Assembly: GCA_020051695.1 (NCBI GenBank)
Contig: JAGVQM010000038.1
Span: 46,326 to 110,325 of the forward strand
Source: Candidatus Zixiibacteriota bacterium
Lineage (GTDB): Bacteria > Zixibacteria > MSB-5A5 > WJJR01 > JAJRUJ01
Direction of reading: 5' to 3'
Length of the DNA stretch: 64,000 nucleotides
The position numbers and the translations under genes are program-made. Each line of letters begins with the position of its first letter. Within the stretch, counting starts at the first letter, position 1. Shown here piece by piece: positions 39,301 to 64,000 of this stretch. The notes under the pieces were generated by a model that did not search any database, had not been told where the DNA came from, and saw only the letters and a program-made list of their open reading frames with translations.

Positions 39301-40035
39301 ATGAAGACTGTGGAATTGGCCGCCCGGACCCGTGAATTAAAGGGGAAAGGCCCTGCCCGGCGGTGCCGCGCTGATGGTCGCATCCCCGGAGTGCTGTATG
39401 GTATTTCCATCGAACCGCAGCCGTTGACAGTGAGCACCCATGAATTTGTCAATGCCGCGCGCGGAGAGAATACCGTGCGGATGATGGTGAACCTGAAATT
39501 CGACGGCAATGGGCGCAGTGAGATGGCCCTGGTCCGCGATGTGCAAAAAGACCCGGTTACCGGCCGCATCGTGCATATCGATTTTTTGCATGTCTCCCCG
39601 GACCGCAAGTTGAAACTGACCGTGCCGCTCAAGCTGATCGGCATCCCCGAGGGCGTCAAAACCCGCGGCGGCGTGCTGCAGTGGATTATGCGGGAGTTGG
39701 AAGTTGAATGTCTGCCCGGTAATATCCCTGAAATCGTCGAGTTGAATGTCGAGGCCCTGGGTATTGGTGATACCATCCATGTCCGGGAAATCCCGATCGA
39801 AGGGGTGACCATTCTCTCCGATCTGCGACGCACAGTCGTTTCGGTGGTCCCGCCGACGGTCATCAAGGAGACTGTGACCACCACTGATGCTGCCGCCGAA
39901 GCCGCCGGTGAGGCCGAGAAGGTCGGCGAGGGTGAAGAGGGCGCAGAGAGCGCAGAGGGCAAAGAGGGCAAGGAAAAAGCCAAAGCCGACGCCACGGCGA
40001 AAAAAGAAGAGAAAAAAGACAGGAAGAAAGAATAG
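39301..40035 (+). CDS. rplY: 50S ribosomal protein L25 / general stress protein Ctc
   Basis: L25/Ctc beta-barrel N-domain plus the Ctc C-domain, with a Lys/Glu-rich tail. Confidence 0.85.
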   Translation: MKTVELAARTRELKGKGPARRCRADGRIPGVLYGISIEPQPLTVSTHEFVNAARGENTVRMMVNLKFDGNGRSEMALVRDVQKDPVTGRIVHIDFLHVSPDRKLKLTVPLKLIGIPEGVKTRGGVLQWIMRELEVECLPGNIPEIVELNVEALGIGDTIHVREIPIEGVTILSDLRRTVVSVVPPTVIKETVTTTDAAAEAAGEAEKVGEGEEGAESAEGKEGKEKAKADATAKKEEKKDRKKE

Positions 40036-40072
40036 CCGGAATACCATACCGTTCGGTTCTGGAATGGACAAG

Positions 40073-40100
40073 CCCCCGACATCTGTCGGGGGTTTTTTTT
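40073..40100 (+). terminator. Rho-independent terminator after rplY
   Basis: CCCCCGAC-atct-GTCGGGGG followed by TTTTTTTT. Confidence 0.85.
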
Positions 40101-42974: not shown

Positions 42975-43313
42975 GGAACGACCTCCAATAAATTTAAAGG
43001 GGATGACTTGAATACGATACATCTTCGGCCCGATTCAAAAAGCACGGGTTTGTATTTCACCGTCACCCTGAGATGAGACCGTCAGGGCAAAGCAGTACAA
43101 CAGAACATATTGTCAAAAAATACAATACTCAAAGAAGATGAATTGGGCAAGGAATTTCCGAATTATCGAGCGTAATTCGGGTAAAATATGGACTGTTGTA
43201 GTCCATTATTCAATATATTTCGTTATAATCTTTTGCGGAAGACCAAAGGGGGGGCATGACGACAATGGCCGATAGAGCGCGGCGGCAGAGGTGCATGCGG
43301 AGGGCTCTGCAGT

Positions 43314-43841
43314 CTATTGTCCTGCGGGCGGCCCCCTAAGCAAATGAACATCATCGATCCACGCGGTACCGGTCCCCTCAACCACGAGGTTGAGTTTCAC
43401 GCTGTCCGGGTTTTGTCCCTGCTGGAGAAAAAACGGCGTTTCCTCGACCGACCAATCAGTGGTGCCGCTGAGCGGGGAAAGCAGATCGCGGGAAAAAAAT
43501 TCCCCCAGTTCCGGAAAATGGCACAACATTTCCAGGTATACGCGGCCGCGGACCTCGGCGGTACGCACCCGGGCCCGGTAGACCAGCGTGGCGTCTTCCA
43601 CGTCGATATCGCTTAGGGCACAGAGTCTGATGACTATTGGTTCGACGGCAGTGATCTGCAATGATCCGTTGCCGTCGACAGATGTTTCCCGGTCAATATT
43701 GACGCTTTGGCGGGCGATGATTTCAGACAGTTCATCCAGCGGGAAATGGCGCAACTCGACAAGTTCGTCGGCAGGTTGCGCGCACCCCACCAACAGGAAT
43801 ATTGCAACAACTGCGGGCACATGCCTCCGGGTTGATTTCAT
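43314..43841 (-). CDS. lipoprotein, hypothetical
   Basis: ATG ATG at 43844/43841 after GAGGA. Lipobox FLLVGCAQ. The longer upstream ORF in the track is antisense to the kinase gene and was discarded. Confidence 0.5.
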   Translation of the reverse strand: MKSTRRHVPAVVAIFLLVGCAQPADELVELRHFPLDELSEIIARQSVNIDRETSVDGNGSLQITAVEPIVIRLCALSDIDVEDATLVYRARVRTAEVRGRVYLEMLCHFPELGEFFSRDLLSPLSGTTDWSVEETPFFLQQGQNPDSVKLNLVVEGTGTAWIDDVHLLRGPPAGQ

Positions 43842-43979
43842 CATATCCTCACGCGGACGATAGCGGGTTGTAACCACATGGCCGTTTATTTTCATTATCG
43901 GCCGGTATGGGGCCGATCTTGCAGTCAAATTCCGGGGGAATTGGCCGAAAATATAGTACAAGAGACCAAAGGCCGAAAT

Positions 43980-45650
43980 ATGCCCACGACAGACTCTGTT
44001 ATCCCCTTGCGGTTCGGGGAGTTTATTCCCGAGGAGAAGATCGGGCAGGGGGGAATTTGCGAAGTCTACCGCGCCCGTCAGCCCTCGCTGGACCGCCGGG
44101 TCGCGGTGAAAGTATTGCACCATCACCTGCTGCAAAACGCCGGCCTCCGCCGCCGTTTTGTGCAGGAGGCCAGGATTCTGGCCCGGTTGTCCCACCCGCA
44201 CATTATCCATGTGATCGATGCCGGGACCGAGGGGGAGTGGGTGTATTATGTGATGGAATATGTCGAGGGCACTGATTTCAAAAAAATCCTGCAGGAGGGG
44301 TACAAGACCATCCCCGAAAAATTGGACATCCTCATCCAGACGCTGAAAGGGCTGGAGTATGCGCATAACAACGGTGTGATCCATCGGGACCTGAAACCGG
44401 CGAACATCATGGTCGATATGGCGGGGCATGCCCGATTGGCCGATTTCGGTATCGCGCATTTGTTCGCGCAGCCCGGCGGCGCCGAGGAAACCCAGACCGG
44501 GGAATTGATGGGCACACCGGCATATATGGCGCCCGAACAGCGGACGTCCGCCAAAAACGTGGATGCCCGTTCGGACATTTATTCGATGGGCGTCATTTTG
44601 TATGAGGCGGTCACCGGCAAAAAGCCGGTCGGGCGCGTCCGCCCGCCGTCGGAACTGAACCCCGACGCGCCGAAATTCCTCGATGAAATAATCCTGACCT
44701 GTCTGGAGCAGGAACCGGAAAAGCGCCACCAGACCGCGGGGGCGTTGAAAGATTTGCTGTTGGAGACCGCGCTGCAGCCGACGGGCATTGTCGAGGTGGC
44801 CGAACCGACGTTTGCCGGAGTGGAGGATTTTATCGGTTGCTGCCGTTTCCTAGATACATTAAGCAAGGACGAAGCGTCCCAGACGTTCCTTGTGGAAAAC
44901 ACCAGTGACCACAAATTGTATGTCATTAAAAAAATCACCGGCCGGAGTATCGAACTGAGCAGTCTGCGCCGGCTGGCAGTGTTGAAACATCGCCATATTT
45001 TGAATATTCACGGCGCCGGTTCGGACCTGAAAAAAACGGTGGTGGTCACCGACTATGCCCGGGGTGGGTCACTGGCCGACCGGCTGGCCCGCCGCTGGAA
45101 TGAACCGGAGGTCACCCGTTTTTTATATGAAGCGGCGCAAGCCGTCGATTTTGCGCACAAAAACGACGTCATCCACGGCAACCTGCGTCCCTCCAATGTC
45201 CTGTTCGACGATCAAGGGAGCGTGTTGCTGGCTGATTTCGGCATCCCGCCCCTCGCGGCAAAGCGCAAGCCCTGGTGGCGGCCGCCCGAACGGAATAATT
45301 CCCGGGAGGGAGATTTGTTTGCGCTGGGCGCGCTGGCGTACCGGATGCTGTTCGGCGATCGGCCGCGCTGGTTTGCGGAAGATCACCTGCATTTTCCCAA
45401 AGTGCAGACGTTTGTTTCCCGCGATACCCGCCGGATGCTGATGCGGTTGCTGCATCAGGACGCCGCAAAGCGCTGCGCCTCGGCCGAGGAAATCCTGTTC
45501 CAATATGCGCCCCGTACAAAAGATAAGACGAGTATCCTGCCGCTGGAACAGGACGGGCGGAGATTCTCGCTGCCCGTGTGGGTCTGGTTGATAATTGCGG
45601 GGGTAGCGGCGGTTGCGGGGGCGGTGCTGGCGTTCTGGCGTGTGCTGTAA
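43980..45650 (+). CDS. tandem Ser/Thr protein kinase - pseudokinase with C-terminal TM anchor
   Basis: Domain 1 is Hanks-type: GxGxxxxV…VAVK…HRDLKPANI…DFG…APE. Domain 2 keeps VIKK and DFG but has HGNLRPSNV (catalytic Asp changed to Asn). Final hydrophobic helix LPVWVWLIIAGVAAVAGAVLAFW. Confidence 0.75.
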   Translation: MPTTDSVIPLRFGEFIPEEKIGQGGICEVYRARQPSLDRRVAVKVLHHHLLQNAGLRRRFVQEARILARLSHPHIIHVIDAGTEGEWVYYVMEYVEGTDFKKILQEGYKTIPEKLDILIQTLKGLEYAHNNGVIHRDLKPANIMVDMAGHARLADFGIAHLFAQPGGAEETQTGELMGTPAYMAPEQRTSAKNVDARSDIYSMGVILYEAVTGKKPVGRVRPPSELNPDAPKFLDEIILTCLEQEPEKRHQTAGALKDLLLETALQPTGIVEVAEPTFAGVEDFIGCCRFLDTLSKDEASQTFLVENTSDHKLYVIKKITGRSIELSSLRRLAVLKHRHILNIHGAGSDLKKTVVVTDYARGGSLADRLARRWNEPEVTRFLYEAAQAVDFAHKNDVIHGNLRPSNVLFDDQGSVLLADFGIPPLAAKRKPWWRPPERNNSREGDLFALGALAYRMLFGDRPRWFAEDHLHFPKVQTFVSRDTRRMLMRLLHQDAAKRCASAEEILFQYAPRTKDKTSILPLEQDGRRFSLPVWVWLIIAGVAAVAGAVLAFWRVL

Positions 45651-47007: not shown

Positions 47008-47066
47008 GGGCGGTATACCGGCGGAGTACCACTTGAATTTTCCCGGAAAACCGCTATATTATGTGC

Positions 47067-48569
47067 ATGAAAATCGCGACCGGGGGGAAACGGGTGTCTC
47101 GGTGGACGACGATGATGTGGGTCATCGGGCTGTGTCTGCTGGGTCTGGTTTGCGGTTGTTCGGACGACAGCGGTGTTAACCCGGACACGCCCGAAAACCG
47201 CATCGGCCCCGCGGGGGGCACTGTACATTCTTCCACGGGTGAGCTGACCTTGACCATCCCGGCCGGGGCGTTGCAGGACGATCTTGATTTCACGGTCGAA
47301 CCGGACAGCACGCCGGATGCGGCGGCCGGGACGTACAAAATCGTGTCGCCGGTGTATTCTTTGGGACCGGCGGGGACGGCGTTCGGTGTCGCGGCGACAA
47401 TTTCGCTTGCCTACGATGAGACGGCCCTAGGGCCGGCGGCGGAGAATTCGGTGGTTCTGTGCGCCAGCGCCTCGAGCGGCCTTGGATGGGAAGTGCTGGG
47501 GACAACAGTCGACAGCGCCATGAATCGGGCGGCCGCCCCGATAACCCATTTGTCGGATTTTGCAGTAATGGTCGATACGGTGTTGCCCACGACCGTGGAA
47601 ACGGGCGGGTATATTTATTCCGATACAACCTGGGGAGCCAAAGATACGGTCCTGGTGACCGCCTCGGTCTATGTGACCGGTGAGGCCTCGCTCACTATCG
47701 AACCCGGGGCCAGGATCTTGTTCAACCTGGGTACCGGACTGAACGTTTACGGAAATCTGACTGCCGCGGGCACGGAGGGCCGGCCCATCCTGTTTACTTC
47801 GGCGGCCGATATTGCGGGCGGCGCGCCGGCGGCCGGCGACTGGGACGGTATTCGATTCAACCGCGCCGGCGGCGGCACGCTGAGCAGGAGTGTCATTCGT
47901 TACGGTATAAATGGTGTATATATCAGCGAGTCCTCTCCGCAAATCACGCATTGTCTTATTGAAGAGTTCAAACAGAAGGGAATATACATCGACGGGCCCG
48001 GCGGTATCGTGCCGCTGGAACTCAGTGTGACCGAATGTCTGATCCGCCAGCGGAGCGCAGACTATGCCGATGTGCGCGTGGGTGTGTTTGTTTATGAGGC
48101 AGTAGATATAACCATCGCAGATTGCGCAATCAGCAATTGCCATTACGGAATACAATTTCAGGGTCAGGTCGCAATTATCCCTCATTTTCAGGTGACCGGT
48201 TGTGATATTCGCGAGCACCGCTGGTACGGCATCTACGCGCTGGCCGGCGGGTGAAGCGGAGGCAAGACACCGACGGGTTCGGTGCAGGGCTGCAATATCG
48301 TGGGCAACGGCTTACTGGCATTTCGCACTTCGGCCTGCCATGACAGCGGAAGTCTCATCCACGCGGAAAACAACTGGTGGGGTGTGGCCGATTCGGCGGG
48401 GATCGAGGCGGTCGTCTACCACCATGGAGACAACCCAAACTATCCCACGGTGGTGTTTGTGCCGTTTGCGACCGGCGCTTTTGATCTGGACCCTCCTACA
48501 GGTTTTGGCGTGAGTGCAGGTAACTGCGAGGGTTACACCGAGATGCCTTCCGCCGTAGCTGATCATTGA
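47067..48569 (+). pseudogene. right-handed parallel beta-helix repeat lipoprotein interrupted by an in-frame TGA at 48252-48254
   Basis: Lipobox LLGLVCGC. Beta-helix motifs (…NNWWG…). ORFs 47061-48254 and 48282-48569 are in the same frame, separated only by TGA (…YALAGG*SGGKTPTG…). Confidence 0.55.
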
Positions 48570-50763: not shown

Positions 50764-51779
50764 ATAATCATTATGGTGCCCATGACACGAGCGCATGGGG
50801 GTGTTTTTCGGCCCTTGGGGAGAAAATTAAAAAAGTGTCGCCTGATGTAAAAAAACCCTTGCTCTCTCTCCGGCCCCCGGTAATATTGGCAGACCTGGTG
50901 CTTGGAGGCACAATCGGGAGGGTTAAAAAAGTATACGGCGGGTTAAATCCGCCGGCGTTGAATCCGATAACAGGATAGACCCATATGCCGTGGGGAATTA
51001 TGCATTTGGGGTGAGGGAAAATATTTAAGTACGTACGGAAAAACATCTTGACAAGCCGTAGGCAGGCGATTAGAGTTCACTCAATTTGCCGGGCCCTATC
51101 GGCGGAAGTCGTGGCTGTAGCAGGTTCGGGAGGGTCAAATACGCAGACAGGCGGTTAAGTTGTCCGACTGTTTGCCGAGGCATATGTCAGAAAGGAATTA
51201 ACGGTTTTCGGCGGTGCGGGCTGAAAACTGTTGCAATTTCCCGGGGAGCGGGAAAGCCGAAACGAGGCGGTCAAAGAGCTCAGGGGCATTTGGCCGGTTG
51301 AGTTTTCGGCATAATTCAGAACTTGGCATTTACACAATGTGGTCAACCACGGAGGGTTGCCCAGGCCGGCACCGGCAAATGGATGGAATCAGAGAACATT
51401 GCGGTGCCCACCGGATTTAATCCTAATCGCCTTTCACGGTCCTGTGCGGGGGCCGCAATTGCGAGAGTAAACGGATTTGCTCGGGATGGTTCCGGATACG
51501 GTATTGTTTTTTGCGACATCTATTCAGTTACAAGCAGGGGGGTAGGCATGACCGATTTTGCCCGTTTTCTTCCATTTTTTGGGAAATTTATATAAAAAAT
51601 GAAGAGGTATATTAATGTATTGTAGGTCGAAAGGAGGGTCTTGCGACAACACACCGCGGAACATGCGGTCTGTTATGAACTCTGGAAACAAGCCCGGACA
51701 ATCGCAGCTGTTTATTACGCCCGGACAATCGTATCAAGACTTTAAGAAAAAACATCCCTTCAACAAAGGGGGAAAGTTG

Positions 51780-54700
51780 ATGAAACCATTCTCTTTGAGA
51801 GGGTTGGCAGTTTTAACTGCCTTGCTTCTGGTCCCGCTGTTTGCGGCATCGGTTTCCGCGCAGCAGACCACCTGGTATTTTACCGGGACAGGCATTGAAG
51901 TCAGCAAGGTCGAAGACGGTTCTTGCCGCGTGATCAATGCCCAACCCGGCACAACGTTATCCGACTCCATGGTCGTTATGCTTCTCCGGTTTGCCAATAC
52001 CTGGAACCCGGCGCAGAGTGACGTCCTGGATACGGTCCGTGTTTTCAGTACCTGTTCGGATTCCGGCATTGTCCAAGCCGTTTATCTGTACCGGGAAACG
52101 GGCGTCGGCACTCCGGGGTTCGGTGATTTTTCACCGGGCACGGACGCGCTGTTGGGTACCGTTAATTCGTTCGCTAATGGATTCGATAACGGCGATAGTG
52201 CAGTATTCAATCTGAACTATACCATCGCCGCCGGCGACTCCATGTTCATGTATGTCGTTTTGAACCTTAGTGACGGCGTCGTGGGCGATCTGGATTATCT
52301 GGGTTCCGATATCGGCGTTAAAATTTACGGCGATCCCCCGGGAACCAATACCGGTCCCGGAATTATTTTTGTAGATGCCCGTTATGGCCCGACGGACGTG
52401 GACGGACCGGGCGGCGTTTACGAAATTATCGCGAACGACCCTGACAACCAGGGTTATCTGGAAACCCGCACGATGCCCTACTATTTTGAGACGGGCACTG
52501 TCGGTTCCGATATGCGCATGGGTGAGGTTAACATCACCTACAGTGGTTCGGTGGCCCCGATGAAAGTGGTCAGCGGGACCAGCGACAACGAAGTCGTGAT
52601 GGGCATCATCATCGACAATTCGCGCAGCACCGTCGCTGATGATTTGACCGGTGTGAGAATTCGCAGCCGCATGACGCAGGAAAGCTCGATTTCCCGTCTT
52701 GCGGTCTACAAGGAAAGCACCTGTGTCGTCCCGACGGGTCCAACCTCGTTCGGCACGGGCGACATCCTTTGGGCGCAGAATTCCTCTCCGGGAACCTTCG
52801 ACTGGGGAACTGACCCGGCATCCGGCGAATATCTCAATTTGCCGATTCAAGCCGGCATGGGGAATATCGCGGCCGGTGAAATCGTTTATCTGTATGTTGT
52901 TGTTGATCTTAACGAGATGGTGATCAACGCGGACGAAACCAGCCGCAACACCTACAACTGGCATAAAGTCGGCGTTGCGCTGAATGATCAGGCGGGGACA
53001 ACAGTCGATCCCGAGGCGTTGACTTTTGATAACGCCGGTATCGGTCCTCGTGTGACAGCTGATGGCACCCGGATTGTGGTGTACAACAATCTGGCGTACT
53101 GGAGCGGCACGCATACCATCGTGGGCAATTCCCCCATCTTGATCGATCAGGATCAGGCCTGGGACGCCGATTCTTTGATTGGGCTGTATGTTTTCAACCT
53201 GACCGACGGCAGCTCCGGTTTGATTACCGATAACGACGATTCGACCGTAACCGCAGCGTTGACCGGCGGCGCCCAGAACGACTGGGATATCGGCGATCAA
53301 TACTATATCGGTACGCTTCCCGGCCAGCCGCTGTTGATCGACTCGAAGCCGCCGGTGATCCAGTGCCTGAACGACCCGTTCGATACGACCTGGCCGAACT
53401 GGGAACACTCGGATGACGGCGGTGATACCCCCGGCTACGGTATCGGGACAATCGACAACCTGGATAATATTCTTGTCAGGTTTGATATCGATGACGACGG
53501 TCCGGGTGCGTTGGTCACGGTCGGCAACACTCGGCCGCGCGTTGATTTGCGCGTGTTCGGCCAGACTGTCGGGACGCATGTCCTGATGGACAACGATTCG
53601 CTGGATATCTGGGAAGCGGACATGACGCCGATCCCGGATGCGGATGAATTGACTGCGTATCGCACCGACACGCTTTCCGGCAACAAGTTGCTGCAGGTCC
53701 TGGCTCAGGACGATGCCGGCAACCTGGCTACATTCTATTGCCCGGTCATGCGTGACATCGATACCCGGCGGCCGAGCTTTACGGGTGTGCCGATCACCTT
53801 CGATTTCGCCCCCGGCGGCGACGTGAACGGTGACGGTGTGGCCGCGATTGGCGACATACTCCGCATGACCGCCAATATGGGCGCCAACTGGAGAAACTGG
53901 AACCGTGAAGACGGCCAGGGTGTTGAAATTCGGAGTCTGGTCGCTTATTTCCATGGGGATTGGGGCTTCACGCAGCAAGTGCTGACCGATCCGTCGGGTG
54001 ACAACCAGAATTTCTCCGTTGATTTCACCCTCGCCCCCGGTGGTTGGGACAGTGTGTTGACGACGGTAGCGGCGACGATGTGTTCGCTGGTCGCTATCGA
54101 TAACGCCGACAACGTGGCGTTCAGCACCGAGGGTACGCTTACCGCGACCCCGTTTGCCGGTGCGGTAATCGATAACATGCCGCCGACACCGGTTTCCGCG
54201 CTGTGGACTCTGTGGAAAGACATCCCCACCAATAACGTCGTTAATATCGGCGATACGGTGCGGTTCAGAGTCGACATGAACGGGATCACCGATGTGGCCT
54301 CGGTCCACACCGACCTGTTTATTGCCGGTCTAGGTGGAAACCACTATGTCCAGCTGGCCGACAGCGGCAACAATATCTGGGTCTTGAAACACAAAGTTCT
54401 GGATCCGCTGTTGAACAATTCCGGCGATTTTGCCAGGGATGAAGCGCCGCATACCGATGTGTGCCCGACCGTGCCGTATATCCATGGCTCGGCGGACAGC
54501 GTCATCATCGTATCTACCGACTTTTTCGGCAACGTCGATACGACCTGGTTGTATGCGCCGACCTTCCCGCATCTGGATTGGGCGCCGGCGGAAACAGTGA
54601 CTATCGACACCAAAATCCCGCCGCCGGTCGGCAGTCTGACGGCCACGCCGGGTCCGGAGGGTTCGGTGCGGTTGGATTGGACCAATGCTACCGACGGCGC

Positions 54701-57700
54701 TGCCGTGGGTAACCTGAAGGACGGTCCGTGGACCTTCGAAATCTGGTGGGATGCGGGTGCAGGTGCCGATCCGAATCTGAAATTGGCCGAGGTTTATGAA
54801 GCAACGGCCTCGGCTCCTTGCGCCAACATTACCTCCTGGCGTTCGGATACGACGGTATCGATGCAGGCGAATTTCACCTGCGGCGAGACCTATCGCTTCA
54901 AGATCAAAGTCCTGGATAACGCCAACAACCCGTCGGCTTGGTCGACGACTGTTGCCGTTACCACCGACTGCGCTGCGCCGACCGTTTGCGTGTTCCAGCC
55001 CGAGGAAGAGGGCGGCATCTACAGTTGCAATATGTGCACCTGGGATGGTTCGGACAGCACACAGGGGTTGACTATTTACGTCCAGCCGTTCGATCCCGAG
55101 AGCCAGGACGTTCAAGCCATCGGCACGGTCTTGGTCCGCGTGAAAATGCGCGGTGGTGTTCCGGGCCCGTGGACGTCGGTTGGCTTTACCGATGTCGGCG
55201 CGGGTGCGCCGTTCACCTACGCGTTGTTGCTTGATTGTGAAGACCTCGACGCGATCGTCGGTACTGAACTGACCGATGTCCTGGAATTGATTATCCTGGG
55301 CGCCGATGAGGCCGGTAACGTCACGACGATTGCCGAAGCGCTGGCCAACTGCGGCCCGTGGGAGTTCTCGTGGTCGACCTCGTCGATCGAAGGCGAAGTC
55401 GTCACGATCAACGGCGACCTGCCGGAATACCAGGCCTACTGCGATCTGCATGGCTGGGAAATCACCGGCGATGCCAACACCGTGTCGATCACTCTCACCG
55501 GCGGCGTGATGCCCTACAAGGCCCGCGCTTATGCCGATGACGATGAGAACACCGGCAGCAATGACCTGATCTGGTACGCCGAGGGGCTGACCAGCGCCAC
55601 CACCACCTTCAACCTTGATGCAACCGGTTGGGATAAAGGTGAGGGGACGCTGGATGTCGAGTGGTGCGATGCGACCGGCGCGTTCACTTCCGCGACCGTG
55701 AAGCTGTGCGTGCTCGATGAGATCGCCCCGTGCGCTCAGGTGATCAACCCGATGGACGGCAAGTGCATCCGTCGTGCGCACTCGGTACTCGATCCGGTCC
55801 CGGTGACCGTCGAGATCGATCCGCTGGCCAACTGCCTCGATCCTAACGGCGTGGTCAAGGTCGACTACGAATGGGCGACCGAATGTTGTATCGGTACCTA
55901 TTCGGAGATTGTGAGAGTTCGCGACAGTATCCCAGTCCCATGCGGTCTCCAGGATTCTGCCGAGTGCGACACGTTCTATACGGGCGGCGTCATGGACTCG
56001 ATCAACTGCATCAATCCTAGTGAGATTTGCTGGCATATCTTCTGGTATACAGACACGCTCGAAATCGACTGCGACACAGCCGATTGGAATAACTTCGCCA
56101 TCATGCCGGGCGACTCGATCCATAGCGATCTGGTCACCGCTTGGTGGTTCAATAAAGATGATCTGGCCTGGGTCACCGAATCCGGTACTCTGATCTATAT
56201 CCGGGCGCGGGTGTATGACGACCAGGGCAACATCTTTGTCACCGAATGCGTGCAGGTCTGCGTCGATATCGACACTCCGCCGCTGTGTTTGCGCAGCCCG
56301 GAAGAGTGTATCGCGCTGGACGGCATTCCTCGCCTTTCCGGTACGGGCGTCACGATGGTGGCCGACCTGAACTGGGCCGAAGGCAATGTTGACGACATCG
56401 AAGATGTCTTCCTGTATCGCAAGAAATCAACCGAAGCCGATCGGTGGGAAAACTGGACCTCCCTCGGCGCGGGCGTGCCCGCCACCAACTCCAGCATGTG
56501 GCGGTGGGACACTGTCAACGTTTCCGGTCTGACCGATCAGGTTTACTACGACTTCCGGGTCATTGCCAAGACGATCTGGGGCACCTGGTCGTACGACATG
56601 AACGGTGACGGGCAATTCGATCACAACACCTTCGATACCACCAACTGCGACGCCGTGACCTGGTTCATCGACCACTCGGCCGAGAACATCTGGATCGATA
56701 CGGTCTGGACCACGATCGACGGCAACGAGTTGGTTCAGCCCAATGCCAGCTGCACGCTGAGCGATCCGCGGGGCTGGGCCTGGACGCAGTGGGGTAACGA
56801 CATCACCGTCCAGCCGTTGGTTGAGCCGCTGGGCCTGACCGACGACATCGTCAAGGTCACCTGGACCTTGTACAAAGCCGGTGAGGGCTGCTATTCCTGC
56901 GGTTGCGGCAACGGCTTTGGTGAGCCCGAAACCGGGACCTGTGATTCGAAGGTGGTGCGGATTAACGAAGGCGATAATGCGCTGAATTCGGTTACTTTCA
57001 ATCCCGCCGAGATGGCGTTCTGGATGACCATTGCTGATGGTTTCCAGACGGTCGTCCTCCATGTCCAGGCCGAAGATGCCTGCGGCAACACCAGTGAGGA
57101 CTGCATCGAGCTGTACCTGCTCGATATCGACCCGACCGAGGCGATTATCGTCGATCCGAAGAACCGCGAAGTGTTCTGCCAGGATCATACTAATGGCGGT
57201 GGCGGTATCGAAGTCACCGCGATGACGCTCCTGGACGAAAACTTCGTCAAAGCCGTCTTTGCCTACAGCACCAATGGTACGAACTGGATACCGTTTGATT
57301 CCGTGACGAGTGCCACGACCAACGGCAACCTGTCTGGGATGTGGTACCCGCACGCCCTGGGGCTGACGGACGGCATGTATTACCTGACAGTCTGGGCCGA
57401 GGACAATGCCGGCAACAGGCAGGCGACGGATTACCCGATTATCGTGTATCTGTCCTGCGGTGTGCCGACAGTGACCCTGACCTACCCGACCGCCGACATG
57501 TTCGTTGGCTGCCCGCTGGAGTTGACCGCGACGGCGACTGCGCCGGATGCGTACAACTACATCACCAAGGTGGAGTTCTTCTACCAGGCGGTGGGCAGCG
57601 CGACAGCGACCAAGATCGGCGAAGACCTGTATTCGTTAGACGGCATTTACAGTTACGCCTGGGATCCGGCGCTCAATGGTGATTACTACATCTGGGCCAA

Positions 57701-60700
57701 GGTGACCGTGAAATCCGGCGCGACCGCTGTCTCCGAGATGGTCTGGGTCAAGGGTGACGGCACGGCTCCTGAAGTGTACATGGTTGAAGTCAATGACGAC
57801 CACTCCAACGGCGGCGCGGGCGACCCGACAATCGTCACCGCGGGCGACGTAGTCCCGATCGTCGTCGAGGCGTGGGATCGGCTGCAGGCGACCGGTTACG
57901 GTCCGGAAAACAACTGCGGCCTGGACAGCGTCAAGATTTACGTGAAGCAGGGTTCGACGGTTATCTTCGGTGAGCTGACCACGCCGGTCGCTTCCGTGGA
58001 AAATCAGTTCTCTGCTGACTGGCCGACTACCGGTCTGCTGAACGGGACCTACGAGGTGTATGCAGTTGCCTCCGACGGCTGCTGCAACAACGCGACTTCC
58101 GCGAGCTGGTATGTCTCGATCGTCAACCCTATGCCGCCGGTGACCATCGCCGTGGACGAAGCTGTCCTGGTATGTGGCATGTGGTCCACCAACGAGGATG
58201 AGATCACCCTCGTGGCGGTTCCGGGTGATCTGGCGGACATCGATTCCGTCCAGTTCTGGGCGAACAGCACCGATCAGTCTGATGTGTACGACCAGTACAT
58301 GCTCCTGCCGGGCGCCGTTTCCTTCAACGGGGTCTACTTCCTTGAGGTGGATGTAACCCTGTGGGAAGAAGGCACCTACCGGCTCCGGGCAGTGGTCTGG
58401 ATCGACGGCAAGTGCACGGACGACGGTAACGATTCCGATACCGAGTTCGATGACTTCACCTTCGATCCGAACACCAAAGTCTGGCAGATGCTGTTGAACA
58501 TCGATCGTTCGGCCCCGACGCCAACCTTCACGCTGGATGCGTCAGTGATTGAGGAAGGCACGGAGTTCGAAATCACCGTGGCGAACCCGCCGTGCGGCAG
58601 TTGCGATATCGATCACTACGAATACGGTATCGTGACCATGGCCGGCAAGTACGGTACGCGTGCGGAATATATTACCGACGAGTGCACGTTCTCGTTCGAT
58701 CCGGTCGATTCCGGCGCCGTGACGATGCACAATTGCTACTGGGGTGGTTATATCCGCGTGACCGCGGTCGACCCCCTGGGCAACGAGGCATACTACCAGA
58801 TCCCGGCCGAGATCCTGGGCGTGGCCGACGGTTACGCCAAGATCACCTCGCCGGCGCATGGTGAGTATATCTCCGATACCGTCGCGATTACCGCTTCGGT
58901 CGTCGGTACTGAAGGCGAGCTGACGTACTACTACAGCGCGCTGGGCAGCACCGCTCGGACCGAAATCGATAACCCGTTTGCTACCAACGACCTCCCCGAC
59001 GGTCAGTACCTGTTGTGGGTCGGCAACAATGGTAACATTCACAGTATCGAGTGCGCGGTACCGGTGAGTATCGTCAACGACTGCGCGACCGTTGTTCTGG
59101 AAAATCCGATGCCGTATGGCACTTGCCATGACGGTCACGTGATGTTCATCGGCGGTACGGTCGATCTGCTGGCCGAAGTCACCCTGACTTCGAGCGTCCC
59201 GGTCGACTCGGTCGTATTCAAGTACAAGACGCTGGATGCTCCGGGCGGGCACACCGATACCGAAGATCCGGCAGATGGCTGGGTGACAGTCGGCATTGAC
59301 CGCTATAAAGCCACGTCCTGGGATGTTTCCTGGAACACGGCCGACAGCGGCAGCGTCGTACCCGATGGTTACTATGTGATTATGGCCTTCTCCTACGACC
59401 GTTCCGGTCAGGAGTGCCATTCGAATTCAATCACCGTGGCCGTCGACAACACCAGGCCGTATAGTGAAATCTCTGAAGTCAACGGCGACCAGACCACTTC
59501 GACGTGTGCCGACGTCACCGAAGGCACCAACGTGGAAATCATCGCCGTGGCGGCTGATGACCGTTCACCGCTGGGTCCGGGCGATGCATACAATTCCTGC
59601 CCGCGGTACCTGCAGTTCTTCGCGGGTTATTGCGGCGAGGGTGGCGGCGGCAACGTCGACATCGTCTGGGTTATGGATGCGTCCGGTTCGATGGGCGACG
59701 AACAAGCGGCAATCGGCGGTCAGATCAACCTGTTCATGGATGGTCTGGGCGGCCTGGATTACAATCTGGCCGTGACCGGATTCGAATCCGAAGGGTACTT
59801 CTCGTCGGTGAACGATTCGACGAAGTCCGTACCGATGGCCCTTGACGGTTCGTATGCGGCGGCCCTGATGGGCAACGGCGCCTGGACGACCAACCAAACG
59901 GTCTTCAATACCATGATCACCGGGGTTGGCGTGGGCGGCGGTACGGAAGACGGTGCTGGCTCGCTGATGGAGACGCTCGAACACTACACCTTCCGTTCGG
60001 GCGCCAAGAAGTACTTCATCCTGATCACTGATGAATCCGGCGATGACAACGAGCTGGAAGCGCAGTGTATCGCGTTGATGAACCAGGAAGGCGTCACGGT
60101 CCATGTGGTGTCCGACCCCTCGTTCACCACGTACTCCAACATCGCGGCAGCCACTAATGGCCAGGTGTACGATATCACCGCGGCCAACTGGGGCGCGCTG
60201 TTGGGCGTTCTGGCTTCGCAGATTTCGGGCGGCGGCGCGAACGCGACCCCGTTTGATCCGATCTGGGGCAAGGCAGTCGATCTTGACACCGATGCGCCGT
60301 CGGTTCACTGGAACACCACAGGACTGGCTCCGGGTGAATACTGCTTGTGGACGGTCATCACCGATAACGTCGGCAACCAGTATACCTCGGGACTGACGAC
60401 GGTCTGCGTCTATGACAAGACCCCGCCGGTGGCGTGGATTGCCGGTTTCGGCGATGCAACCCTGGCCTGTCCGACCTGCGAATCGCACCGGATCTACGCG
60501 ATGACCTGCGATACCGACGTCAAGTCGATCAAATTTGAAATTCGGCCTGACGGTTCGACCAGCGAATATGACTGGACGACCATCGGTATCAGCAACATGA
60601 TCGATTCCTCGCTGTGGTATACCGATTGGAATCCGTGTGGTATGGACGGTGCCTACGACTTGCGTGCGGTGCCGGCTTCCGACCACTACGCCACCGGTAC

Positions 60701-62642
60701 TACCGAACACGTGACCTGGGATATCGATCCCAACGTCCAGCCGACGCTGGCCGTGACGTTCGATTCTGATGATTGCTCGATCTCCTATGCCGACGGTGTG
60801 ATCTCCACGATCACGTTCGAAGACAAGAGCTCGGGCAACCTCGGCCTGGTCCGTGTGGATGCCACCAGCGCCCCGTGGTACATGGGGATGCTGGGTATTT
60901 ACCAGCCGCTTGGTGAAGTGGCGCTGACCACCGAAAAGGTCGACCTGGTGCAGATGCTGGGTATGACCAGTGTTGCCTATCTCGGCAACTTCGATGACAG
61001 CGACATCCTGCTGGGCGGTGTGGGTTCGTTCTACGGGTCGTACTACGACAAGACGACGCTGGTTTCGTACCTGGGTATGTCCGACGTTTCGGTCGCCCGT
61101 GTCTATCCGACACTGGGTATGCCGGGCACGTTGTACAACCTGGCCACGAACTCGTACCTGTCGATCGACCGTGACGCCGTCACGGCCACCAATGGCGTGA
61201 TCATTCTGCCGTCGCTGGTGCCGACGATGTACACGGGCCAGAACGACCTGTACAATATCTGGGATGTTAACGGCTATCTGCCGGCGATCCGGTTCACCAA
61301 CCCGTTGGAGGGTGGGCTGGTCGATGGCAAGTATGCCAAGATCAAGATTCCGTACGATGCGGCTGCCCCGATCGTCGATTCGCTTGCCGTAGCTTGGTGG
61401 GACGGCGACGAGTGGAAGGTCAACACGGGTATCTTCTTCGGGCCGAGCGCGGAGGGCTTTAACGACAATAACCACACTGTCGAGTTCTTCGCCGCCGACC
61501 TGCACGGGATCTACGCGGTGGTCTCGAATGATGCGGATGCCTGCTCCGGACCGATCACGGTCACGGCTGCGCCGCATGACGCGATCACTCCGTGGGCCAA
61601 TGGTTACACCGACAACGACCCGACATTCAACACGCTGGTGCGTTCGAACATCACCGGGAACGACAACAACTGGGATGTGGATTCGCTGCAGACCCATGTG
61701 AAGCTCGACGGCATTACCATCTACAATAACGGTGCTAATGCCACCGGCTGGCTGACCACCTGGGATCCGGTGTCCGGCCTGTTGAAGACGCGCTGGAACG
61801 GTGCCGCTGGTCTGGAAGAAGGCGAACACACCTACTGGGTGAAGGCGCGTACGTTCCAGGGCTGTGCCAAGGAACTGACCGTGACCTTCGACGTGGACGA
61901 AACCGCCCCGTTGATCAATTGGACACACCAGTATGTCTGCCCGAATCCGGAATTCAAGATTGTGATTTCGGATAACGGCGGAGCCGGTGTCGATCTGGAC
62001 AACATCCAGGCCGATGTTTATGACTACGATCTGTCGCTGGGCACGCAAATCCCGTCCGACAAGCTCGTCTATGAGGAGCATGCCTCGGGTTTCGAGTTGC
62101 GCGGTGACACGCTGGTCTTCGGTCTGACTGCCGAAAACGCAATCTACCGCCGCTATGTGGTAGTGTTGTGGGACGGCACGGAAGACGGCCGGTATGTCGG
62201 TGAGGACGACGATGATGTGTACCAATCCGACAGCAAGTGGGTCTATGACAACGATCATGGCGTACCCGACTTGGTCGGCAACAATGCCACACCGGTCTTC
62301 CGGATGTTCACCGTGGGCGGCGACGGCTGCGGCGAAGCTGGTGACGACGATGTATCGCACAACGATCCGAACCCGTTCGATCCGTGGGCCGGTCAGACCA
62401 CGACAATCACTGTCCCGGCGGCCGGTTCGGTCAGCGTGAAAATCTATGACCTTGCCGGTGAAAAGGTGATCACGCTCTGGGATCAGGAGAATACTTTCAT
62501 CTCCGGTACCGAGGTTGAATGGGATGGCAAAGTTGACGGTCGGATCGTCGCGAGCGGCGTGTATCTCTGCCACGTGTCGGGTAACGACAACGGCAAGAGC
62601 TTCTCGCAAGTTGTGAAGATCGCGGTTGTTAACGGAGAATAA
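51780..62642 (+). CDS. giant (3620 aa) secreted multi-Ig-like-domain adhesin with vWA (MIDAS) domain and T9SS-type/FlgD-Ig-like C-terminal sorting domain
   Basis: ATG at 51780 after AAAGGGGGAAAG. Signal peptide MKPFSLRGLAVLTALLLVPLFAASVSA. Many DxTxP-initiated Ig-like modules. Dockerin-like Ca loop GDVNGDGVAAIGDI (about 53.8 kb). vWA with DASGSM MIDAS (about 59.65-60.24 kb). C-terminus NPFDPW…KIYDLAGEKV…SGVYLCHV…. Confidence 0.85.
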   Translation: MKPFSLRGLAVLTALLLVPLFAASVSAQQTTWYFTGTGIEVSKVEDGSCRVINAQPGTTLSDSMVVMLLRFANTWNPAQSDVLDTVRVFSTCSDSGIVQAVYLYRETGVGTPGFGDFSPGTDALLGTVNSFANGFDNGDSAVFNLNYTIAAGDSMFMYVVLNLSDGVVGDLDYLGSDIGVKIYGDPPGTNTGPGIIFVDARYGPTDVDGPGGVYEIIANDPDNQGYLETRTMPYYFETGTVGSDMRMGEVNITYSGSVAPMKVVSGTSDNEVVMGIIIDNSRSTVADDLTGVRIRSRMTQESSISRLAVYKESTCVVPTGPTSFGTGDILWAQNSSPGTFDWGTDPASGEYLNLPIQAGMGNIAAGEIVYLYVVVDLNEMVINADETSRNTYNWHKVGVALNDQAGTTVDPEALTFDNAGIGPRVTADGTRIVVYNNLAYWSGTHTIVGNSPILIDQDQAWDADSLIGLYVFNLTDGSSGLITDNDDSTVTAALTGGAQNDWDIGDQYYIGTLPGQPLLIDSKPPVIQCLNDPFDTTWPNWEHSDDGGDTPGYGIGTIDNLDNILVRFDIDDDGPGALVTVGNTRPRVDLRVFGQTVGTHVLMDNDSLDIWEADMTPIPDADELTAYRTDTLSGNKLLQVLAQDDAGNLATFYCPVMRDIDTRRPSFTGVPITFDFAPGGDVNGDGVAAIGDILRMTANMGANWRNWNREDGQGVEIRSLVAYFHGDWGFTQQVLTDPSGDNQNFSVDFTLAPGGWDSVLTTVAATMCSLVAIDNADNVAFSTEGTLTATPFAGAVIDNMPPTPVSALWTLWKDIPTNNVVNIGDTVRFRVDMNGITDVASVHTDLFIAGLGGNHYVQLADSGNNIWVLKHKVLDPLLNNSGDFARDEAPHTDVCPTVPYIHGSADSVIIVSTDFFGNVDTTWLYAPTFPHLDWAPAETVTIDTKIPPPVGSLTATPGPEGSVRLDWTNATDGAAVGNLKDGPWTFEIWWDAGAGADPNLKLAEVYEATASAPCANITSWRSDTTVSMQANFTCGETYRFKIKVLDNANNPSAWSTTVAVTTDCAAPTVCVFQPEEEGGIYSCNMCTWDGSDSTQGLTIYVQPFDPESQDVQAIGTVLVRVKMRGGVPGPWTSVGFTDVGAGAPFTYALLLDCEDLDAIVGTELTDVLELIILGADEAGNVTTIAEALANCGPWEFSWSTSSIEGEVVTINGDLPEYQAYCDLHGWEITGDANTVSITLTGGVMPYKARAYADDDENTGSNDLIWYAEGLTSATTTFNLDATGWDKGEGTLDVEWCDATGAFTSATVKLCVLDEIAPCAQVINPMDGKCIRRAHSVLDPVPVTVEIDPLANCLDPNGVVKVDYEWATECCIGTYSEIVRVRDSIPVPCGLQDSAECDTFYTGGVMDSINCINPSEICWHIFWYTDTLEIDCDTADWNNFAIMPGDSIHSDLVTAWWFNKDDLAWVTESGTLIYIRARVYDDQGNIFVTECVQVCVDIDTPPLCLRSPEECIALDGIPRLSGTGVTMVADLNWAEGNVDDIEDVFLYRKKSTEADRWENWTSLGAGVPATNSSMWRWDTVNVSGLTDQVYYDFRVIAKTIWGTWSYDMNGDGQFDHNTFDTTNCDAVTWFIDHSAENIWIDTVWTTIDGNELVQPNASCTLSDPRGWAWTQWGNDITVQPLVEPLGLTDDIVKVTWTLYKAGEGCYSCGCGNGFGEPETGTCDSKVVRINEGDNALNSVTFNPAEMAFWMTIADGFQTVVLHVQAEDACGNTSEDCIELYLLDIDPTEAIIVDPKNREVFCQDHTNGGGGIEVTAMTLLDENFVKAVFAYSTNGTNWIPFDSVTSATTNGNLSGMWYPHALGLTDGMYYLTVWAEDNAGNRQATDYPIIVYLSCGVPTVTLTYPTADMFVGCPLELTATATAPDAYNYITKVEFFYQAVGSATATKIGEDLYSLDGIYSYAWDPALNGDYYIWAKVTVKSGATAVSEMVWVKGDGTAPEVYMVEVNDDHSNGGAGDPTIVTAGDVVPIVVEAWDRLQATGYGPENNCGLDSVKIYVKQGSTVIFGELTTPVASVENQFSADWPTTGLLNGTYEVYAVASDGCCNNATSASWYVSIVNPMPPVTIAVDEAVLVCGMWSTNEDEITLVAVPGDLADIDSVQFWANSTDQSDVYDQYMLLPGAVSFNGVYFLEVDVTLWEEGTYRLRAVVWIDGKCTDDGNDSDTEFDDFTFDPNTKVWQMLLNIDRSAPTPTFTLDASVIEEGTEFEITVANPPCGSCDIDHYEYGIVTMAGKYGTRAEYITDECTFSFDPVDSGAVTMHNCYWGGYIRVTAVDPLGNEAYYQIPAEILGVADGYAKITSPAHGEYISDTVAITASVVGTEGELTYYYSALGSTARTEIDNPFATNDLPDGQYLLWVGNNGNIHSIECAVPVSIVNDCATVVLENPMPYGTCHDGHVMFIGGTVDLLAEVTLTSSVPVDSVVFKYKTLDAPGGHTDTEDPADGWVTVGIDRYKATSWDVSWNTADSGSVVPDGYYVIMAFSYDRSGQECHSNSITVAVDNTRPYSEISEVNGDQTTSTCADVTEGTNVEIIAVAADDRSPLGPGDAYNSCPRYLQFFAGYCGEGGGGNVDIVWVMDASGSMGDEQAAIGGQINLFMDGLGGLDYNLAVTGFESEGYFSSVNDSTKSVPMALDGSYAAALMGNGAWTTNQTVFNTMITGVGVGGGTEDGAGSLMETLEHYTFRSGAKKYFILITDESGDDNELEAQCIALMNQEGVTVHVVSDPSFTTYSNIAAATNGQVYDITAANWGALLGVLASQISGGGANATPFDPIWGKAVDLDTDAPSVHWNTTGLAPGEYCLWTVITDNVGNQYTSGLTTVCVYDKTPPVAWIAGFGDATLACPTCESHRIYAMTCDTDVKSIKFEIRPDGSTSEYDWTTIGISNMIDSSLWYTDWNPCGMDGAYDLRAVPASDHYATGTTEHVTWDIDPNVQPTLAVTFDSDDCSISYADGVISTITFEDKSSGNLGLVRVDATSAPWYMGMLGIYQPLGEVALTTEKVDLVQMLGMTSVAYLGNFDDSDILLGGVGSFYGSYYDKTTLVSYLGMSDVSVARVYPTLGMPGTLYNLATNSYLSIDRDAVTATNGVIILPSLVPTMYTGQNDLYNIWDVNGYLPAIRFTNPLEGGLVDGKYAKIKIPYDAAAPIVDSLAVAWWDGDEWKVNTGIFFGPSAEGFNDNNHTVEFFAADLHGIYAVVSNDADACSGPITVTAAPHDAITPWANGYTDNDPTFNTLVRSNITGNDNNWDVDSLQTHVKLDGITIYNNGANATGWLTTWDPVSGLLKTRWNGAAGLEEGEHTYWVKARTFQGCAKELTVTFDVDETAPLINWTHQYVCPNPEFKIVISDNGGAGVDLDNIQADVYDYDLSLGTQIPSDKLVYEEHASGFELRGDTLVFGLTAENAIYRRYVVVLWDGTEDGRYVGEDDDDVYQSDSKWVYDNDHGVPDLVGNNATPVFRMFTVGGDGCGEAGDDDVSHNDPNPFDPWAGQTTTITVPAAGSVSVKIYDLAGEKVITLWDQENTFISGTEVEWDGKVDGRIVASGVYLCHVSGNDNGKSFSQVVKIAVVNGE

Positions 62643-62733
62643 CCCACCACAGGTAAAATGAGCCGGCGGGGGAACAAAGCCCCCGCCGGCGGCTGATAGA
62701 GAAAATAAGCTTATGCAAAAGGAGAGAGCCGAA

Positions 62734-63636
62734 ATGACCAGGATACCGTGGGGTAAGATTGCGGTAGTCGTGGGCGTTTTCTCTGCCCTGATGGTGGGAG
62801 TAACGACGACGGCAACTGCGGAAGATAACCACGCATTCCCGTTTCTGCGGACCGGCGTCGGTGCTCGCGCTTGGGGTATGGGCAATGCCTATGTAGCCAT
62901 CGCGGGTGACGCGACCTCGGCGTTTTTTAATCCCGCCGGGCTGAGCAAACTCAACAAATGGGGCTTCGCCACGATGATGTCGGTGGACATGGCGTTCGAT
63001 CGTAAACACAATTACGCCGCGCTGGCCGGCAACTTCGATTTTGGCGCGCTCGGTTTCTCGTGGGTGAATTCCGGCATCGATGATGTGTCGATTTCCGAAG
63101 GTCAGGGCGGAGGCGCGTTCAACTACAGCCAGAATGTCTTTGCCTTAAGCTATGCCAATCAGTCATGTAATTTCCGGTGGGGCGTGAACTTCCTCATCCT
63201 GAACCATGACGTCAACGGCATTTCCAACACGGGCGTCGGCGGTGACCTCGGGTTCCAGTGGGATTTCCACAAGGAAGCCACGCTGGGCCTTGTCGGCCAG
63301 CACTTCGGAATCACTGTGGGAGAAGACAAGGTCCCGGCCAACTATCGGTTGGGTGTCGGTATTCACCCGGAAATGCTCGAGGGATTTACGTTCCCCTTCG
63401 AGATCCAGAAAACCCAGCATCGTGACGACATCGCGTTTCGGGTCGGCGGCGAATACGCCTATGTCTTCGAGAATGAAGACTACGGCACCGCGATTCGGGC
63501 CGGTGTTGACGATGGTGCGTTCAGCGTCGGTGCGGGCTTGCGGTTCAAGCAGTTCATGCTTGACTATGCATACATCACTGAGAAGGAAGATTTCCTCGGT
63601 GAAAACCATAAGTTCAGCCTGATCGGCAATTTCTAA
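62734..63636 (+). CDS. outer-membrane beta-barrel protein, PorV/PorQ-like (T9SS-associated; PorP/SprF-like role possible)
   Basis: ATG at 62734 lies 5 nt after AAGGAGAGAG. Signal peptide. N-terminal motif FLRTGVGARAWGMGNAYVAIAGDATSAFFNPAGL. Ends in F (…LIGNF), an OM beta-barrel signature. Confidence 0.5.
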   Translation: MTRIPWGKIAVVVGVFSALMVGVTTTATAEDNHAFPFLRTGVGARAWGMGNAYVAIAGDATSAFFNPAGLSKLNKWGFATMMSVDMAFDRKHNYAALAGNFDFGALGFSWVNSGIDDVSISEGQGGGAFNYSQNVFALSYANQSCNFRWGVNFLILNHDVNGISNTGVGGDLGFQWDFHKEATLGLVGQHFGITVGEDKVPANYRLGVGIHPEMLEGFTFPFEIQKTQHRDDIAFRVGGEYAYVFENEDYGTAIRAGVDDGAFSVGAGLRFKQFMLDYAYITEKEDFLGENHKFSLIGNF

Positions 63637-63666
63637 TTTGGCGATTGTTCGGAACGCATAGACCAC

Positions 63667-63704
63667 CCGCCCCGGCCATCCTGTGGTCGGGGCGGTTTTT
63701 TTTG
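63667..63704 (+). terminator. Rho-independent terminator
   Basis: CCGCCCCG-gccatcctgtggt-CGGGGCGG followed by TTTTTTTTT. Confidence 0.8.
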
Positions 63705-63869: not shown

Positions 63870-64000
63870 ATGTCAAAAGTCAAAGTGTTGCTGATTGTTG
63901 CACTGGCCGTGCTGCCGGCGGTTCTGGCCGCGCCCGCCGTGGCTGATGTGGCGATCACACAAAAGTCGACTTCGACCATGATGGGCGGGATGATGCTGAC
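63870..64000 (+). CDS. secreted hypothetical protein (3' partial, runs off window end)
   Basis: ATG after AGGGAGGG. Signal peptide MSKVKVLLIVALAVLPAVLAAPAVA. Confidence 0.5.
   Translation, partial: MSKVKVLLIVALAVLPAVLAAPAVADVAITQKSTSTMMGGMML

Follow-up and report, generated by a model that had tools for sequence, protein, structure and literature searches.

How might a bacterium outside the Bacteroidota bring a protein of 3,620 amino acids (aa) to its surface, and what would hold such a protein there? This question is raised by a locus in a 64,000-nucleotide (nt) stretch of DNA from a Candidatus Zixiibacteriota bacterium (contig JAGVQM010000038.1, positions 46,326 to 110,325), hereafter called the window. 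In this locus, the gene of a giant surface protein (51780-62642, + strand) is followed on the same strand by the gene of an outer-membrane barrel protein of the PorV/PorQ family (62734-63636, 300 aa). The giant ends in a C-terminal domain (CTD) of the kind that marks proteins carried by a type IX secretion system (T9SS). We regard it as probable that the barrel is the cognate carrier and anchor of the giant, the two genes making up a T9SS cargo/carrier cassette. An earlier note, made from the sequence alone, had already paired the two genes and likened them to the SprB adhesin and its partner SprF.

The giant protein and its sorting domain

The giant gene is contained in a stop-to-stop open reading frame (ORF) at 51615-62642, and its credible start is the ATG at 51780, which is preceded by the Shine-Dalgarno sequence GGGGGA. 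Counted from this ATG, the gene has 10,863 nt, encodes 3,620 aa and takes up 17% of the window, exactly as the earlier note had it for its 10.9-kb ORF. That note had described the product as a secreted protein of the adhesin type with a signal peptide, immunoglobulin (Ig)-like modules, a von Willebrand A (VWA) domain with a metal-ion-dependent adhesion site (MIDAS) and a T9SS sorting domain, and all of these elements were recovered. The signal peptide (51780-51860, +, aa 1-27) reads MKPFSLRGLAVLTALLLVPLFAASVSA followed by QQ, with a positively charged n-region and a hydrophobic core. Read from the sequence, it is a Sec signal peptide with a predicted cleavage between SVSA and QQ, and signal peptides of equivalent type were found in the complete orthologous giants. 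The mature protein, whose first codon is at position 51861, is thus predicted to begin with Gln. This recalls the 'Q-rule' of the Bacteroidetes for substrates of signal peptidase I, a rule that is not valid across the whole Fibrobacteres-Chlorobi-Bacteroidetes (FCB) group (PMC5837995). The giant is extremely acidic, with 501 Asp and Glu residues against 153 Lys and Arg residues.

The C-terminal sorting domain (62367-62639, +, aa 3530-3620) is of T9SS type A and is FlgD_ig-like. It passed the NCBIfam model TIGR04183 (cut-off 23) whether scored within the full protein (26.6 bits) or as an excised tail (30.9 bits), so the tail does score as a T9SS sorting domain, as had been claimed. Among the tails of 28 orthologous giants (see below), 21 matched TIGR04183, and the C-terminal ends of the PorZ and PorU models were matched by 23 and 22 tails, respectively. 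The alignment of these tails (A4) displays the type-A motif series, namely PNPF..., IYDxxGxxV, W.G...G..VA.GVY and a terminal K..V. Searched against the Protein Data Bank (PDB), the tail profile found the CTD of PorU (6ZA2, 6e-10), FlgD Ig domains and the CTD of PorZ (5M11, 1e-7), the best non-flagellar structure matches being the retained CTDs of PorU and PorZ. Cryo-electron microscopy has revealed how type-A CTDs are bound inside SprA: they attach to extracellular loops of PorV via a single highly conserved Lys (PMC10994853). K3613 is nearly invariant among the giants and may correspond to this PorV-contacting residue.

A type-B reading of the tail was also considered and rejected. The giant of the window had no match to the type-B CTD models (TIGR04131 and PF13585 CHU_C) at E<=0.1 in Pfam or NCBIfam, and none of the 28 orthologous tails matched a type-B NCBIfam model. 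Weak CHU_C matches were present in three of 16 orthologous giants. These are probably cross-matches to the type-A/FlgD_ig tail, as was seen in the other CTD protein of the window (24533-26197).

The barrel gene downstream of the giant

The better start of the barrel gene is the ATG at 62734, which is preceded by AAGGAGAG; the database representative (P0001) starts at the ATG at 62713 and has 307 aa. The 300-aa product has a signal peptide ending in TATA, with ED following, and a C-terminal Phe. The earlier note had recognised a PorV/PorQ-type barrel by the motif GVGARAWGMGNA...NPAGL. This motif is indeed present within the plug segment RTGVGARAWGMGNA...FFNPAGL (62848-62943, +, aa 39-70), which holds invariant columns in an alignment of 19 barrel family members (A1) and aligns with the equivalent segment of PorV of Flavobacterium johnsoniae. 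The assignment was borne out by the PorV/PorQ family model NF033709, which the barrel passed with 96.5 bits (cut-off 90) over aa 40-307 of the 307-aa form, and which was also passed by distant barrel relatives fetched from other phyla.

The barrel has a 14-stranded FadL-type fold with an N-terminal plug, and its best fold match is F. johnsoniae PorV. The profile of the A1 alignment gave one convincing match in the PDB, to F. johnsoniae PorV of the SprA translocon (6H3I_F, E = 3.2e-8), with the plug motif and the last strands as the matching regions. This match came from the family profile only, and a direct phmmer search of the PDB with the barrel found nothing. No PorP/SprF model matched the barrel at E<=0.1 in Pfam or NCBIfam.

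Conservation of the gene pair

Relatives of the barrel numbered 1,244 at E<=1e-5, and the 80 best loci of the genome collection were fetched. We defined as the orthologous set the 28 barrels with at least 33% identity for which upstream DNA was present. Every one of these 28 barrels is preceded by a + strand giant of 2,432 to >3,300 aa that bears the same tail, with gaps of 69-276 nt between the two genes. The co-occurrence of adhesin and porin in related genomes, which the earlier note had proposed as a check, is thus complete in this set. The same arrangement is found in close relatives (83-89% barrel identity), and two Zixibacteria-type contigs encode proteins of 3,886 aa and 3,656 aa about 97 nt upstream of a barrel homologue. 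In one relative with an 83%-identical barrel (L083, 3-9907), the giant lies in two overlapping ORFs of 1,964 and 1,418 aa, which could stem from a frameshift or faulty assembly, or could mark a pseudogene.

The window giant is collinear with those of loci L001 and L002, with 34-38% identity over about 2,650 aa by BLAST, and its N-terminal third is far more divergent than the rest. Downstream of the pair, L001 and L002 have genes for Aminotran_5, a deacetylase and a methyltransferase. Because the flanking genes vary between loci, the conserved unit is the two-gene pair. This pair is inherited as a unit: barrel distances correlate with cargo distances, with r = 0.78 for the tail and r = 0.86 for the remainder (Mantel test). 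On the 3' side of the barrel we also observed a small secreted protein whose N-terminus is rich in Met and Gly (ADV.I.QK.TS.MMGGMM). It is encoded at 63870-64000 (+) in the window, where it is cut by the window end, and in the two relatives nearest to the window, at 10991-12091 in L083 and at 10581-11582 in L086, and it was not found in L001 or L002.

The pairing extends beyond the orthologous set. A local hidden Markov model built from the tails was searched against the six-frame ORFs of 83 PorV-family sources and gave 62 CTD matches, all but one of them on the strand of the barrel. The CTD protein lies directly upstream of the barrel in 47 of the 83 loci and directly downstream in eight (adjacent in 55 of 83), and seven matches are non-adjacent. 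The adjacent CTD proteins span 226 to >3,300 aa, and the bins they come from include those labelled KSB1, Krumholzibacteria, Eisenbacteria and Elusimicrobia.

The nearest named relatives of the barrel belong to Candidatus Zixiibacteriota, a phylum of the FCB group, and the GC content is 54-61% across the region, in agreement with the earlier suggestion of a non-Bacteroidetes lineage. Automatic bin labels of other close loci ('uncultured Ignavibacteria', 'Acidobacteriota') were treated as unreliable.

Proposed mechanism and alternatives

On the reading that we favour, the giant would be exported by Sec, and its C-terminal beta-sandwich domain would act as a T9SS sorting signal recognised by a SprA-type translocon. 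As the cargo exits the translocon, the private PorV/PorQ-family barrel would take over the tail, which would stay uncleaved and docked on the surface loops of the barrel, as PorU does on PorV and PorZ on PorQ. An acidic fibre of Ig-like modules, about 3,500 residues long, would thereby be tethered to the outer membrane, with the divergent N-terminal third as its distal end. About 800 residues from the anchor, the fibre of the closest clade also has a metal-dependent VWA/MIDAS site, which may supply ligand binding. We infer the passage through the translocon, the retention of the tail without cleavage, its binding to the barrel and the function in adhesion from the protein families and the gene arrangement described above. 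It is known that the CTDs of PorU and PorZ are not removed and are held at the surface by PorV and PorQ (PMC7463736; PMC10202324), and 'cognate PorV-like beta-barrels' have been hypothesised to protect CTDs from cleavage (PMC10202324). In a Bacteroidota counterpart (Rapidithrix, L074), PorV2 is followed immediately and on the same strand by a CTD-bearing PorU2. The favoured reading is further supported by the two different barrel/CTD-cargo pairs of one genome, by the PorU sortases next to PorV-family genes in sibling phyla and by a second type-A CTD protein in the window, all described below.

Several observations weigh against this reading. The tail of the giant scored below the Pfam cut-off for PF18962 (15.6 against 27). 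The barrel stayed below the equivalog cut-offs for PorV (NF033710; 30.8 against 250), PorQ (NF033711; 50.4 against 220) and PorV2 (NF052325; 59.1 against 325), and it has 100 residues fewer than F. johnsoniae PorV, its loops being short. In the Mantel test the correlation for the tail did not exceed that for the remaining cargo, and we therefore speak of inheritance as a unit and claim no co-evolution. A strong hairpin stands between giant and barrel, so that their co-expression is assumed rather than demonstrated. None of the T9SS translocon, motor and sortase genes (SprA/Sov, PorK/L/M/N, PorT, PorW) is present in the 64-kb window. Furthermore, no PorU labelled as Zixibacteria was among the matches listed for an Eisenbacteria PorU query (10) and for a Poribacteria-like PorU catalytic core (51); because word-sharing limited the candidates, we take these searches as uninformative rather than negative. 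Finally, all type-A CTDs are described as using one general PorV (PMC12618676).

A rather unlikely alternative is that the barrel serves as a cognate shuttle only, a PorU-type sortase cleaving the tail, after which the giant would either be linked covalently to a glycolipid of the surface or be set free. Cleavage and attachment are the standard fate of type-A CTD cargo (PMC7463736), and our analysis found PorU sortases in sibling candidate phyla. However, the tail profile is nearer to the retained CTDs of PorU and PorZ than to any cleaved CTD in the PDB, and the matches listed include no PorU for this lineage. In addition, a pairing of one cargo gene with one barrel gene is found for anchored type-B cargos (PMC12618676; PMC9143113).

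We consider it improbable that the barrel is the general PorV of the organism, serving all type-A cargos and adjoining the largest of them by chance. The rule of a single PorV for all type-A CTDs (PMC12618676) speaks for such a role, as does the fact that the window encodes another type-A CTD protein (24533-26197, +, 554 aa) with no adjoining PorV-family gene. This protein exceeds the cut-offs of TIGR04183 (41 bits), FlgD_ig (41) and Por_Secre_tail (28.2), besides a weak match to DUF3836, and its presence shows that the sorting signal is used more than once in the genome. A general PorV would, however, hardly be expected to score 30.8 against an equivalog cut-off of 250, and the linkage between barrel and giant is strict over barrel identities of 33-89%. 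Moreover, several PorV-family paralogues occur per metagenome-assembled genome (MAG), each beside a different CTD protein. Two distinct barrel/CTD-cargo pairs of one MAG (L015 and L039), which argue against a single housekeeping PorV, are such a case, and L040 and L062 are further examples.

There is also a small chance that the pair is a display module independent of the T9SS, in which the barrel inserts or anchors the tail and perhaps aids export with no SprA translocon, loosely after the logic of two-partner secretion or inverse autotransporters. The T9SS is widely called exclusive to the Bacteroidota (PMC12618676), no T9SS core gene has been demonstrated in Zixibacteria, and the literature searched held nothing relevant that links the two. 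Bins labelled Elusimicrobia, Poribacteria, FCPU426 and Goldbacteria contain barrel/CTD pairs as well. On the other hand, MAG labels are unreliable, a FadL-type barrel with 14 strands and a plug is not known to translocate proteins, and the tail retains the type-A motifs through which SprA and PorV are contacted. Moreover, sortases of the PorU type, components of T9SS attachment, were found beside such barrels. They passed NF033707 (cut-off 420) with 595 bits in a Ca. Eisenbacteria locus and with 434 bits in a Poribacteria-like locus, where the PorU gene lies directly upstream of the PorV-family gene. In these two bins, one Poribacteria-like and one of Ca. Eisenbacteria (L032 4122-10993 and L069 2139-10918), the PorU sortases are full and the barrels beside them PorV2-like, so that T9SS attachment-complex genes are present well outside the Bacteroidota; a Latescibacterota PorU is present by name only.

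A FadL-type channel for hydrophobic substrates, placed beside the giant by coincidence, is very improbable: FadL, TodX and CymD are close structural neighbours of the barrel and one JGI homologue is annotated as 'long-subunit fatty acid transport protein', but the barrel passes the PorV/PorQ family cut-off whereas its sole FadL-family match, FilD, scores 14 against 970, its family profile finds PorV and no FadL in the PDB, contrary to the unrelated FadL/OmpP1 transporter that the earlier note had envisaged as the other outcome, and a CTD protein adjoins the barrel in 55 of 83 loci.

Comparison with known systems

If the barrel is the carrier and anchor of the giant, the closest precedents, to judge from sequence, are PorU-PorV and PorZ-PorQ of the T9SS attachment complex of Porphyromonas gingivalis and F. 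johnsoniae, and PorU2-PorV2 (NF052324/NF052325), rather than SprB-SprF. In these systems, as is proposed here, a 14-strand barrel of the PorV/PorQ family holds a surface protein by a retained CTD of the type-A-like, FlgD_ig type. Their partner protein is a sortase (PorU) or a protein for delivery of anionic lipopolysaccharide (PorZ), whereas the partner here is a 3,620-aa Ig/VWA fibre. The present pair also differs in its gene order (cargo, then barrel), in the smaller size of the barrel and in its Zixibacteria-like lineage.

The likeness to SprB-SprF of F. johnsoniae holds for the gene order, in which a giant repetitive adhesin gene is followed on the same strand by the gene of a dedicated outer-membrane barrel, and for the logic of one cargo and one barrel. 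It fails for the families, the barrel having no match to PorP/SprF and the tail none to type B, and no gliding genes were seen. To our knowledge, SprB has no VWA module. In F. johnsoniae, SprF is needed for the secretion and localisation of SprB; it is a member of the PorP/SprF family, whose clients are type-B CTDs (PMC12618676).

With the general PorV of F. johnsoniae (PDB 6H3I and 8GL6), the barrel shares the plug motif GxxARAxGxG...NPA and the 14 strands. However, identity is 15-21%, the missing residues (about 100) are mostly in loops, and the barrel gene stands beside a single cargo gene and has several paralogous copies per genome. The giant itself resembles large Ig-repeat adhesins in its acidic arrays of Big_7, Big_3_3 and Big_13 modules and in a VWA module with DxSxS-T-D. 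Those adhesins are exported and anchored by a type I secretion system, a sortase or an autotransporter, whereas the giant apparently relies on a T9SS CTD and a PorV-family barrel.

Modules of the giant

In the window giant, Pfam gave solely sub-threshold matches (Big_3_3, Big_7, Por_Secre_tail and VWA). More families were matched among 16 orthologous giants taken from the fetched loci (alignment A3), with Big_7 in 13, Big_3_3 in 11, Big_13 in nine, FlgD_ig in nine and VWA in five. The best recognised Ig-like module is a Big_7 module (57465-57692, +, aa 1896-1971; 22.6 bits against a cut-off of 24.1), which found the 'bacterial immunoglobulin domain B1' (9kvu, E = 0.003) in the PDB. The other is a Big_3_3 module (60303-60440, +, aa 2842-2887; 24.5 bits against 27). 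The earlier note had counted dozens of modules that open with DxTxP. Ig-like modules are indeed present, two of them below threshold here and the families common in the orthologues, but their number cannot be counted directly, and 'dozens' is a reasonable estimate from the length rather than a measured count. The motif D-x(1-4)-[AP]-P occurs 18 times and DxxGN 11 times in the giant, and a BLAST self-comparison detected no internal repeats.

The VWA module (59655-60239, +, aa ~2626-2820) contains the MIDAS residues D2633, S2635, S2637, T2722 and D2751, so that the claim of an embedded VWA domain with an intact DxSxS motif holds, with the window copy just below the Pfam cut-off. It scored 13.7 bits against PF00092 within the full protein and 23.1 bits when excised (cut-off 23.8), and all eight orthologous VWA modules matched this family (best 4.9e-9). 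The profile of the orthologous modules retrieved about 170 solved VWA and integrin I-domain chains from the PDB, with DxSxS aligned to the integrin MIDAS. The MIDAS D, S and S and the TDE motif are invariant in the eight orthologues, and the T is replaced in one of them (L002). The module was detected only in the closest clade (the window and L001-L007), where it is in register with DxSxS...T...TDE. A single-sequence AlphaFold2 model of the module had a pLDDT of 35 and was not used for the fold.

A single Ca-loop motif of the dockerin/EF-hand-like kind, DVNGDGVAAIGDILR, is located at 53820-53864 (+, aa 681-695). Its consensus across the 16 orthologues is DxNGDGIAAxGDxLR, with D692 nearly invariant. 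The loop that the earlier note had called dockerin-like thus exists and is conserved, but the giant matched no dockerin model at E<=0.1 in Pfam, and the loop is single rather than duplicated as in a dockerin.

Leader, spacer hairpin and terminator

Upstream of the giant lies an ORF-free leader of about 1 kb (50764-51779, +) with a GC content of 49% against 58%. Its sole good promoter-like site, and the best sigma-70-like one, is at 51048-51076, and the leader matched no Rfam family. Long leaders are also present in L010, L017 and L019, and short ones in L008 and L013; no conservation of the leader sequence between loci was detected.

The 91-nt gap between giant and barrel contains a hairpin with 11 G-C pairs and no U-tract on the + strand (62662-62690, +). 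A strong, near-perfect GC hairpin follows the stop codon of the giant within 0-17 nt in all 28 orthologous loci (L001-L028), with dG of -22 to -43 kcal/mol. These spacer hairpins differ in sequence from locus to locus and mostly lack a U-tract. Hairpins of a similar kind, often with no U-tract, also trail the barrel genes. The spacer hairpins could be attenuators, 3' stabilisers or U-less terminators, and such hairpins may be the ordinary terminators of the lineage; a single transcript of giant and barrel is for this reason not established. A separate barrel promoter is disfavoured, since only about 40 nt are left between the hairpin and the barrel start codon. The earlier note had placed both genes under a shared terminator. 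A canonical intrinsic terminator with a 13-bp stem and T8 does follow the barrel (63667-63703, +), but with the all-GC, 11-bp hairpin intervening its sharing is not established, and given the conservation of the spacer hairpin we rejected the operon under a shared terminator as unproven.

Other genes in the window

The gene at 47061-48254 (+), which lies a few kb upstream of the giant, encodes a right-handed beta-helix protein of 397 aa (Beta_helix 49 bits, with a NosD-like match just below the cut-off). At 40821-43022 (-), a 733-aa protein ends in an intramolecular chaperone domain of the Peptidase_S74 family (53.9 bits), of the sort known from fibres of the tailspike and endosialidase type; the ORFs beside it (38889-40082 and 43314-44729, both -) matched no family. 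A Wzi-like capsule-assembly outer-membrane protein (35036-36721, +; 74.5 bits) and a protein with weak, sub-threshold MATE and Wzx-flippase matches (6314-7921, -) hint at surface-polysaccharide functions nearby. The flanks are dense in signalling genes (1972-3129, 9685-12912, 21103-24342 and 43878-45650), which include a diguanylate cyclase (GGDEF), a histidine kinase together with a sigma-54 response regulator, a NosP-like match that is weak and sub-threshold and has a hybrid histidine kinase after it, and a Ser/Thr kinase.

Implications

The literature searched contains no description of a type-A-like CTD cargo that is paired, outside the Bacteroidota, with a PorV/PorQ-family barrel of its own. 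Each gene of the pair can be annotated alone with current models, and the combination of a cargo with a private carrier has so far been known only for type-B tails and PorP/SprF barrels in the Bacteroidota. Under the current rule, one PorV serves every type-A cargo and private PorP/SprF carriers exist only for type-B cargos (PMC12618676). The present pair runs against this rule, as this locus and about 50 relatives combine type-A-like cargos with private PorV-family barrels and are conserved as units in the FCB group and in other candidate phyla.

Bins with such cassettes are labelled Zixibacteria, Eisenbacteria, KSB1, Krumholzibacteria, Poribacteria, Elusimicrobia, FCPU426 and Goldbacteria. 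A more far-reaching idea, which we hold to be quite unlikely, is that cassettes of barrel and CTD cargo form a widespread modular display system in many uncultured phyla, in at least some of them with no SprA or PorKLMN, and that the barrel-tail pair is the ancestral core of T9SS carrier and attachment functions.

The giant is probably a major cell-surface structure of Zixibacteria. If the barrel does carry and anchor it, the 'cognate carrier' rule would extend to the PorV/PorQ family, and very large adhesins would have a simple, non-covalent route of anchoring. A CTD gene beside a PorV-family gene would then be a compact genomic signature that predicts surface-displayed proteins in uncultured bacteria.

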